A stretch of DNA of 52,783 nucleotides from positions 1-52,783 of the forward strand of contig JAHQWW010000015.1 of NCBI GenBank assembly GCA_029856365.1, in the 5' to 3' direction. The position numbers and the translations under genes are program-made. Shown here piece by piece: positions 36,728 to 38,595 of this stretch (its first letter is position 1; each line of letters opens with the position of its first letter). Source of the DNA: Candidatus Hodarchaeota archaeon. GTDB lineage: Archaea > Asgardarchaeota > Heimdallarchaeia > Hodarchaeales > Hodarchaeaceae. Below the pieces are notes generated by a model. That model searched no databases. It saw nothing but the letters and a program-made list of their open reading frames with translations, and was not told the origin of the DNA.

Positions 36728-37195
36728 ATGGTACTTGATTCTGAAATTCGACTTACTCTCCAGCGAATAGAAAATGCTTTACAGAATGTCATGGAGTTGT
36801 CCGATTTTAGAAATTTCATGTTAGCTAAATCCTATCTCGAGGAGGGACAGGTTCACACGGCCATGCAGTTTTTGAAGAGAATTGAGCACAGTGGTCCTAA
36901 CGCTAATACGGTGATAACCCAAAGTCTTTTCATCCGAGCACTTATATTAGTCTATGATCTTCAATTTACGGACGCGTTGGCTCTTTTGGTGCGCATTCGG
37001 AATATGGCTTTTGATAAGGATGATAAGTTACTGAATGACCTTAACTCCCTTATCCGTGATATTAAAATTCAACAACAAGCAAGTGCGATGTATGATACTG
37101 CAGAGGCAAGGGAAAGAATTGAAGCTTTCCGCCAAACAACTATTACTCATTTACAACATTATTTGAACGCTTCTAAAGAACTGGTTCGGAAGTAA
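36728..37195 (+). CDS. Hypothetical all-alpha (TPR-like) protein
   Basis: 155-aa ORF with amphipathic helical pairs. Confidence 0.6.
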   Translation: MVLDSEIRLTLQRIENALQNVMELSDFRNFMLAKSYLEEGQVHTAMQFLKRIEHSGPNANTVITQSLFIRALILVYDLQFTDALALLVRIRNMAFDKDDKLLNDLNSLIRDIKIQQQASAMYDTAEARERIEAFRQTTITHLQHYLNASKELVRK

Positions 37196-37212: not shown

Positions 37213-37875
37213 TTAGAACTCTTTTAAGAACTCTAAAATTAAATTCGTAAGAATTTGTGTCAATTCCTCTTCCTCTCCACTTGCATCAACCCACTCAATT
37301 TTACCCCCAATATCCATTTTTGCCAATTGCTTATAATTTTGTCTAACTTTCTCTTGGTAATCAGCTAGTTCTAGTTGATCTTCGTTTTGTTTATCACGTT
37401 CTCGTATGCGGGATTGGCCTAGTTGCACGGTTACGTCTAAAAGTATCCAAAGATCTGGTTTCTGTGCGAAAGAGTTTTTTTGGAGGACATATTCAGGGCT
37501 AAAGATGTCAAGAGCTCCTTGATAAGCAGCATTTGATAGATAATACCGATCTACTAAAACAATGTGTTTTTGTTCTAAAGCTGGAAGAATATTTTGGTTA
37601 AGATCCCATTCACGATCTTTTAAGTACCACTCGAGCTCAACTTCGGGAGTTACTTCTTCACGATGTTTCTTCACTTTTTTTTGGATTAACTGTCCCCATT
37701 TGGAGTTATGATTGGGTTCATGAGTGACTGTTACGGGGTATGTATGTTTTCGTAACAGACGAGCTATTTTCTCGATTTGTGTGGTTTTGCCTGATCCATC
37801 AATGCCCTCAAATGCGATTAGGACTCCACGAGAAAGTTCTTTCACGGAAATTCGTCTCATACAATAGGTAGACAT
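37213..37875 (-). CDS. tmk: Thymidylate kinase
   Basis: FEGIDGSGKTT, EP, DR, VLVDRY..S..AYQG, PDL..LLDV; start uncertain (37845-37938). Confidence 0.93.
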   Translation of the reverse strand: MSTYCMRRISVKELSRGVLIAFEGIDGSGKTTQIEKIARLLRKHTYPVTVTHEPNHNSKWGQLIQKKVKKHREEVTPEVELEWYLKDREWDLNQNILPALEQKHIVLVDRYYLSNAAYQGALDIFSPEYVLQKNSFAQKPDLWILLDVTVQLGQSRIRERDKQNEDQLELADYQEKVRQNYKQLAKMDIGGKIEWVDASGEEEELTQILTNLILEFLKEF

Positions 37876-37988
37876 AAATGATCCTTCTCCCATTAAATAA
37901 TTTCTTACCATTTGAGTATTGAATTTCGATTGAATCAAACCTCATGAGTCTATAAAGGACACTGAATTCTTTCCATTGATGGTTTGCA

Positions 37989-38138
37989 ATGACAAATGAA
38001 GCTTCTCTTTATCAAGAACTTAATGCAATCATTGAATACCTGAATTACAACGGGCCACTGTTTGTTAACATCCCCTCTGATCTTGAATTAACTGATAAGC
38101 AAAGGGTAACCATTATTTCTGAGGTTGAACCTCTCTAA
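37989..38138 (+). CDS. 49-aa micro-protein A (YLNYNGPL family), absent from the ORF track
   Basis: MTNEASLYQELNAIIEYLNYNGPLFVNIPSDLELTDKQRVTIISEVEPL; paralogous to the next ORF with synonymous-only changes in the core. Confidence 0.75.
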   Translation: MTNEASLYQELNAIIEYLNYNGPLFVNIPSDLELTDKQRVTIISEVEPL

Positions 38139-38268
38139 ATCCCTTTTCACTTTTCATTTCATCCCTTGAGGATTCAAAAACAGGTTTTTTTTCTCAAGAA
38201 TGTGTATTACAAGCGTGTCACTCATCTATTTAACATCATTATGCTTTATACTATCTGTGAGGATCTCG

Positions 38269-38418
38269 GTGTCTCATCAGCTAATTTCACAAGAAGAACT
38301 TCAGATCACAATCGATTATTTAAACTATAATGGTCCCCTCAAAACAGTGACACCTCCAGATTCTGAAACAGAAAGGAAAAAAGGACTAGCTAAAGCGGTA
38401 GCCACTTCTGCATTCTAG
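38269..38418 (+). CDS. 49-aa micro-protein B (YLNYNGPL family)
   Basis: GTG start after GTGAGG; MSHQLISQEELQITIDYLNYNGPLKTVTPPDSETERKKGLAKAVATSAF. Confidence 0.75.
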   Translation: MSHQLISQEELQITIDYLNYNGPLKTVTPPDSETERKKGLAKAVATSAF

Positions 38419-38595
38419 GCGCAGATTTCTATTATCTCAAAAGTAACAAGAATCACAAGGTACCAGACATTTCTCTGACTCCTCACATTTTCTCTTTTTT
38501 AATGAAATTCAGATAATTTTTTATTGATAACACAACTTTTGGAGAACATAGAACACATTTTATATAAAGAAAGCATCAAAAAATAGGAAGAAGAG

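Follow-up and report, generated by a model that had tools for sequence, protein, structure and literature searches.

Adjacent genes for 49-residue micro-proteins in a Hodarchaeales archaeon belong to a genus-restricted family with a putative docking motif

The window analysed here, a whole stretch of 52,783 nucleotides from a Candidatus Hodarchaeota archaeon, carries two neighbouring genes, called A and B, each of which encodes a micro-protein of 49 residues. Both are real coding genes under purifying selection, with a dN/dS ratio of about 0.2 that falls below 0.1 in the conserved core, and they belong to an undescribed family restricted to one Hodarchaeales genus. We infer that the two products are paralogous regulatory micro-proteins of the cytoplasm, and that the helix-cap-strand unit which they share is most likely a docking motif. 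In addition, the ends of the B mRNA are predicted, with fair assurance from conserved complementary heptamers, to pair with each other and to bury the ribosome-binding site (RBS). The features of the locus are as follows.

37213 to 37938, minus strand: thymidylate kinase gene (tmk; PF02223, E 1e-41), the divergent neighbour, adjacent in part of the genus
37951 to 37958, plus strand: TATA box of A (TATAAAGG); a TATA-like box lies equally distant from the start in A orthologues
37989 to 38138, plus strand: ORF A, 150 nt, 49 aa, ATG at 37989; member of type A, with the core, then an LF[IV][RN]-type stretch and a variable tail
38037 to 38060, plus strand: core codons Y17 to L24 of A; core dN/dS 0.05/0.80
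38185 to 38192, plus strand: T8 tract, likely terminator of A, as suggested by archaeal oligo-U termination
38204 to 38221, plus strand: direct repeat RTAYTAC-N4-RTATYAC, abutting the BRE position of B; likely transcription-factor site
38227 to 38234, plus strand: TATA box of B (TATTTAAC), conserved across orthologues
38257 to 38263, plus strand: GTGAGGA, predicted RBS and beginning of the B mRNA, 5' arm; invariant in 10 of 10 orthologues
38269 to 38418, plus strand: ORF B, 150 nt, 49 aa, GTG start; member of type B, ending SAF
38317 to 38340, plus strand: core codons Y17 to L24 of B; core dN/dS 0.03/0.60
38407 to 38415, plus strand: C-terminal S-A-[F/Y] of type B (S-A-[A/S] in type C), conserved, with a putative role considered below
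38480 to 38486, plus strand: TCCTCAC, exact complement of GTGAGGA, 3' arm (anti-RBS); invariant in 10 of 10 orthologues
38488 to 38500, plus strand: T-rich tract, likely terminator of B, conserved directly after TCCTCAC

The two 49-codon ORFs start 280 bp apart and align without gaps, as the preliminary description of this DNA had stated, with 15 identities, or 16 when the GTG start of B is counted as Met. All eight core codons are synonymously different, exactly as quoted there, and DNA identity between the two genes is 65/150. Selection on the peptide, which had been proposed on that basis, is borne out by comparison with the congeneric genome G007, our reference for dN/dS: the orthologue of ORF A in G007 is 76% identical (dN/dS 0.14/0.64), the orthologues of ORF B are 82% and 69% identical (0.09/0.43 against G007), and the core values listed above, computed on residues 10–25, are lower still. 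Since identity to the orthologues (76% for A and 82% for B) far exceeds that between A and B (31%), the two genes result from an old duplication of which both copies were kept. The heptapeptide YLNYNGP is encoded only by A and B in the six frames of the 4.24-Mb genome; together with the homologues in congeners and the dN/dS values, this rules out a fortuitous similarity. If translation began at an alternative GTG at 38257, in the same frame, B would be 53 aa long; the start at 38269 is favoured because all orthologues have ATG, GTG or TTG there, and because the heptamer upstream is not in frame in G005. Among family members, the start codon is repeatedly found 16 codons ahead of the core Tyr.

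The earlier proposal of a homologue search was fruitful, the family being present in 19–20 of 21 congeners. With a 31-sequence profile it was detected in 20/21 congeneric genomes and in 0/61 other genomes of the class; with a broader profile, in 19/20 congeners and in 1/279 other Asgard genomes. The single match outside the genus (G282:C25, L078) lies on a 2,463-bp contig in the bin of a non-Hodarchaeales Asgard and is a near copy of the C105 paralogue of the present genome; this contig is probably misbinned or contaminating. Copy number across the genus is 1–6 per genome. The present genome has six copies, A and B plus four divergent, unannotated members with a YDG core (L061–L064), located at G000 C117:45686-45820, C23:18253-18408, C105:6450-6608 and C5:32594-32755. 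Sequence motifs both upstream (CATTTGATTA..TTATAA) and downstream are common to the C5 and C105 copies. A set of 5.8 billion proteins yielded 56 matches and one of 1.8 billion representatives yielded 40, nearly all of them 37–81 aa long; the homologues carry Hodarchaeales or Heimdallarchaeota MAG names. No member was found in the viral contigs searched, and no significant match to the family was obtained in Pfam, NCBIfam, PHROGs, PDB sequences or Rfam, or by Foldseek structure search; an ESM Atlas search was blank, which shows neither novelty nor absence. The possibility, named earlier as a refutation, that the motif is part of some longer protein already known does not hold, as the profile, PDB and long-relative searches were all negative, the absence of longer fused relatives being in itself weak evidence. 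Paper searches returned no description of the micro-protein family.

A profile over 157 sequences, a partly redundant set, reads L(87%)-x-x-[TIVA]-[IL]-[ED]-[YF]-L(100)-[NK]-Y(96)-x-G(99)-[PV]-h-h. The core is thus less uniform than the invariant motif first described: L (100%), Y (96%) and G (99%) are nearly fixed, and N and P are found in only 80% and 66% of the sequences. The family unit is shown to be an amphipathic helix (L-x-x-h-h-x-[YF]-L) followed by an N-Y-x-G cap and then by 2–3 hydrophobic residues. AlphaFold2 predicts a confident helix for residues 3–18, with a pLDDT of about 93 for residues 11–20, and a low-confidence tail; the hydrophobic moment of residues 8–18 is 1.8 in A and 1.2 in B. 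The helix and conserved motif anticipated in the preliminary description therefore stand, but its variable C-tails do not hold generally, as in B orthologues the part between core Tyr and stop codon stays at 33 residues (a length found in 43/157 sequences) and its end reads SA[F/Y]. The C-terminal tripeptides among the 157 sequences include SAF (14), SAY (11), SAA (8), SAS (8) and SAH (3). The SA[F/Y] end is a possible second docking contact or degradation signal.

At least seven subfamilies can be distinguished, in which the unit occurs alone or fused to a 45-aa domain or to a CxxC-x18-CxxC finger.

Subfamily A: core followed by an LFIR-like stretch; variable tail
Subfamily B: ends in SAF or SAY
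Subfamily C: longer N-helix; ends in SAA or SAS
YDG-core subfamilies: two groups
80–92-aa subfamily: conserved aromatic-rich C-domain
Finger-fused form: CxxC-x18-CxxC
N-terminally extended form: one

The finger-fused members are encoded on the minus strand (L023:2627-2953, L024:2532-2888, L070:2569-2895) and their finger ends in EITII; in G009 (L027) the reading frame stops ahead of the finger. The spacing of the finger is similar to that of the ClpX zinc-binding domain, but PF06689 does not match. The 80–92-aa members (L022, L029, L030, L033, L066–L069) are present in nine congeners and were not found in the present genome; their C-domain, with the consensus SVE..C.S..YLF..GF.V..SPFF..YFRVRY.NY..G.YWP, has no family match, and the fold predicted for an 80-aa fused form is of low confidence (pLDDT 55). 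A 120-aa protein (L023:2962-3375, minus strand, and P0078) also carries a type-A motif at its C-terminus, together with an unknown helical domain at its N-terminus.

A and B appear too short and too disordered to be enzymes. The docking reading is favoured by the occurrence of the same motif ahead of unrelated modules; against it, helix-Gly-strand is a generic element, and sequence and profile searches of known docking families gave no match. Helical docking motifs with an L-x-x-h-h-x-x-L register include the paxillin LD motif and the NR and CoRNR boxes. A and B resemble these in that a short chain, disordered elsewhere, carries an identical hydrophobic register (L-6, -3, -2, +1); they differ by an additional near-invariant Y-x-G cap and strand and by being encoded by stand-alone genes, and homology is not claimed. 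Non-membrane regulatory small proteins of prokaryotes are modulators of enzymes or complexes, 20–60 aa in length. With these A and B have in common their size, own promoter, tight regulation, a single amphipathic helix within disorder and lineage restriction; like them, they are coding genes of under 70 aa under purifying selection with their own expression signals. The family differs from the described examples in lacking any sequence relation to them and in having 1–6 paralogues, at least seven subfamilies and domain fusions.

Other readings of the peptide must be weighed against docking on a larger partner. The helices could instead associate with each other as homo- or heterodimers, as in LisH, the SGTA dimerisation domain or Phd, the paralogues forming a combinatorial code with no larger hub. 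The helix register is similar to that of LisH and Phd, several paralogues per genome favour such a code, and the fused 80–90-aa form weakly matches the Sgt2 N-terminal dimerisation domain (E 0.7–1.3). The end of the helix, I-x-Y-L-x3-G, is a local look-alike of LisH and SGTA helices and of yeast Elongin C, but the rest of those folds is missing from the family, and neither Elongin C (E 1.1) nor Sgt2 (E 0.7) is a significant match. Moreover, the second helix needed by the LisH, SGTA and Phd folds is absent from A and B in the AlphaFold2 models, and the Pfam models SGTA_dimer, LisH and PhdYeFM recognise no family member even at E 10. A homodimer prediction of A (score 0.01) gave no answer and counts neither way. 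We regard self-association as unlikely. As individual candidates, LisH (PF08513; no member at E 10, and a two-helix motif where the family has one helix), the SGTA dimerisation domain (PF16546; no match at E 10 in five genomes, three of them with the fused form) and Phd/YefM antitoxin (PF02604; no member matched, no toxin neighbour) were rejected. A WH2- or beta-thymosin-like binder of actin monomers is highly improbable: the h-h-x-x-L-x5-L spacing agrees with WH2, B reads LKTV after the core, the size is close to that of thymosin and the present genome encodes a bona fide actin (E 2e-132), but the basic LKK/LRR motif is not conserved (the position after L is F in 40% and Y in 20% of cases), the WH2 model PF02205 finds no member at E 10, and the family is confined to one genus, which actin is not. 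Asgard gelsolins have a WH2-like LRRV motif (PMC7444086). The conserved N-half with Ser/Thr-rich variable tails, together with the Tyr-x-Asn and Asn-Gly motifs, would suit a leader helix and variable core in the precursor of a signalling peptide, either modified or secreted (RiPP or pheromone), one of the roles suggested in the preliminary description; this is very improbable, as no maturase, protease or exporter gene adjoins any of about 60 member loci, no signal peptide was found in family members, only seven Cys occur in 86 members, and some members carry the motif in fusion with folded domains. Elsewhere in the present genome, a weak match to the WH2 profile (E 0.005, under the cut-off) lies in the middle of a conserved 740-aa ORF (G000 C190:2409-2456, with equivalents in G007 and G009); it is probably due to chance.

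The A–B pair sits between the divergent thymidylate kinase gene and a convergent gene for an Ig-repeat surface protein. The usual array in the genus is A-B(-C), convergent on an aldo-keto reductase gene, and other copies adjoin unrelated genes; neighbours, some of which were named by eye from their translations, include tmk, aldo-keto reductase, TrxB-like, acyl-CoA dehydrogenase, PHP, CDF and TruA-like genes. No toxin gene adjoins any member. As neighbours vary by subfamily and are divergent or convergent rather than co-transcribed, the arrangement fits action in trans. In two genomes (L046 and L047, from G011 and G015), an unknown gene of roughly 210 aa, inserted on the other strand, separates A from B, which fits each of them being a transcription unit of its own. 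A protein of 155 aa, highly conserved and with weak matches of TPR type (E about 1e-3), is encoded at 36728-37195 of the window (plus strand) and is syntenic with tmk and the A–B pair in part of the genus.

Separate promoters, each with its own TATA box, had been proposed for the two genes. The promoters themselves were upheld; for B, the TTTATA at 38245 that had been put forward exists, but the box conserved in orthologues is TATTTAAC at 38227. The direct repeat upstream of it, with 11–14 of 14 consensus matches, recurs ahead of 20 B-type genes at constant spacing. It lies 65–67 nt from the start codon where the GTGAGGA leader is present and 53–56 nt in a lineage where B is leaderless. This 12-nt difference equals the leader length and would put the start of transcription at the G at 38257 or beside it, in agreement with the position of GTGAGGA 30 nt past the start of the TATA box; GTGAGGA lies 53 nt past the direct repeat, as does the ATG in the leaderless lineage (53–56 nt). 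As SD-type sites stand 5–10 nt ahead of start codons in the present genome, GTGAGGA may be taken as the RBS. A position-weight-matrix scan of the genome for a direct-repeat regulon gave no clear promoter set, and genome-wide TATA calibration gave no usable peak. Two other upstream elements were noted. The conserved AGTCGGGTCAAGAAGACT (AGTC-N10-GACT), which could be a hairpin or a protein-binding site, lies downstream of leaderless B and upstream of C (L050:6640-6680, L051, L017, L018), and type-A genes beside a PHP-family gene (L007, L009, L035, L036) have the common motif TTGATAAAACACCC 60–130 nt upstream of the start.

The predicted B transcript, of about 200–260 nt, thus begins with GTGAGGA and carries the complementary TCCTCAC near its end. 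The spacer between stop codon and TCCTCAC is 23–77 nt long and cannot be aligned among orthologues, and TCCTCAC always stands directly ahead of the T-tract; the same arms are found in two further metagenomic orthologues and in G005. TCCTCAC occurs in only 7/1756 gene 3' regions of the present genome. With transcript ends chosen from promoter and terminator motifs, the pair probability was mostly 0.96–1.0 in nine of ten predicted transcripts and about 0.7 in that of G017. The leaderless B lineage has neither arm and keeps the peptide, and another complementary pair, AGAAGAGA/TCTCTTCT (-17.5 kcal/mol), is found at the array member that adjoins the reductase gene in G001 and G016; these two observations form the pattern expected of a functional pairing. 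Several measures temper this. The covariation score is 0, since 7/7 pairs are invariant in the ten orthologues; the whole B transcript folds no better than shuffled sequences (z -0.01); heptamer pairs within 100–400 nt are seen at five loci in a single genome where about 2.7 are expected by chance; type-C pairs are individually within chance; and when the 3' arm is removed the RBS is still predicted to be partly occluded locally. TCCTCAC does not appear to be the RBS of a gene on the opposite strand, as it is followed there by only a 5-codon ORF, and G007 has no matching start. On balance, end pairing of the B mRNA that buries the RBS is a probable prediction, and paper searches found no report of such an archaeal mRNA design.

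The nearest precedent is found in type I toxin mRNAs (aapA/IsoA, hok/Sok), which form a 5'–3' long-distance interaction (PMC6733600); B, perhaps with C, could be a growth-arrest or toxic peptide silenced by fold-back and by an antisense RNA. Like those of aapA and hok (PMC6733600), the B mRNA is short, monocistronic and predicted to have a 3' anti-SD complementary to its own RBS. Unlike them, it is archaeal, its predicted pairing involves only 7–10 bp and its RBS would be at the extreme 5' end. Neither A nor B is the short hydrophobic membrane peptide that defines type I toxins: the maximum 19-residue hydropathy is 0.53 (A) and -0.08 (B), 0/86 members exceed 1.6, there is no transmembrane helix, and the net charge is -6 for A and -1 for B, both being soluble and acidic. 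No antisense TATA is shared across the ten B orthologues; the loci are vertically inherited in fixed synteny, are not mobile and were not found in viral contigs, and one lineage lost both arms and kept the peptide. A toxin is therefore quite unlikely. Alternatively, the paired ends might protect a stable B transcript whose UCCUCAC anti-SD acts in trans, the peptide being a second product of a dual-function RNA. The invariant terminal heptamers, the conserved regulator site and the terminator are compatible with it, but nothing else is conserved in the UTRs of B, Rfam gives no match, the strongest selection acts on the peptide core and most paralogues lack such arms, so that we hold this to be very unlikely.

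We put at about even odds a mechanism in which A and B dock on a common partner, with paralogues as plugs or adaptors and B doubly restricted. The helix-cap-strand would fold on binding and dock into a groove of one common partner protein; the paralogues would be interchangeable plugs or adaptors, their context set by tails and promoters. Expression of B would pass two gates, a transcription factor bound at the direct repeat and then the terminal 5'–3' RNA helix, which would bury the RBS of the finished mRNA, so that translation of B would be limited to the time before the 3' end exists or following its trimming or displacement. The SA[F/Y] end would serve as a second contact or a turnover signal. 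A wider version, a modular short-linear-motif system of Hodarchaeales in which one docking helix, L-x-x-h-h-x-Y-L-N-Y-x-G, carried by many micro-proteins and fusions, serves a single hub and one branch is expressed under an end-closed mRNA, is doubtful; its hub would possibly be eukaryote-like, of the cytoskeleton or of the ubiquitin/proteasome machinery.

The four additional copies in the genome, the fusions and the predicted 5'–3' pairing of the B transcript go beyond the preliminary description. A family in several copies, built around a single docking motif that can be reused and including adaptor-like fusions, would, if true, represent motif-based regulation arising in an Asgard lineage, and the predicted end-paired mRNA offers a concrete and cheaply testable case of archaeal 3'-UTR control of translation initiation. 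To our knowledge, the sub-60-aa proteome of Hodarchaeales is essentially unannotated. Confinement of the family to one uncultured genus argues for a lineage innovation and not for a proven eukaryotic precursor; Hodarchaeales are among the lineages proposed to be closest to eukaryotes (PMC10307638), a placement disputed in PMC12222021. Elsewhere in the same genome, in a 67-aa histone-like gene (G000 C64:13350, plus strand), a T-rich tract is likewise closely preceded by 7 nt complementary to the leader.
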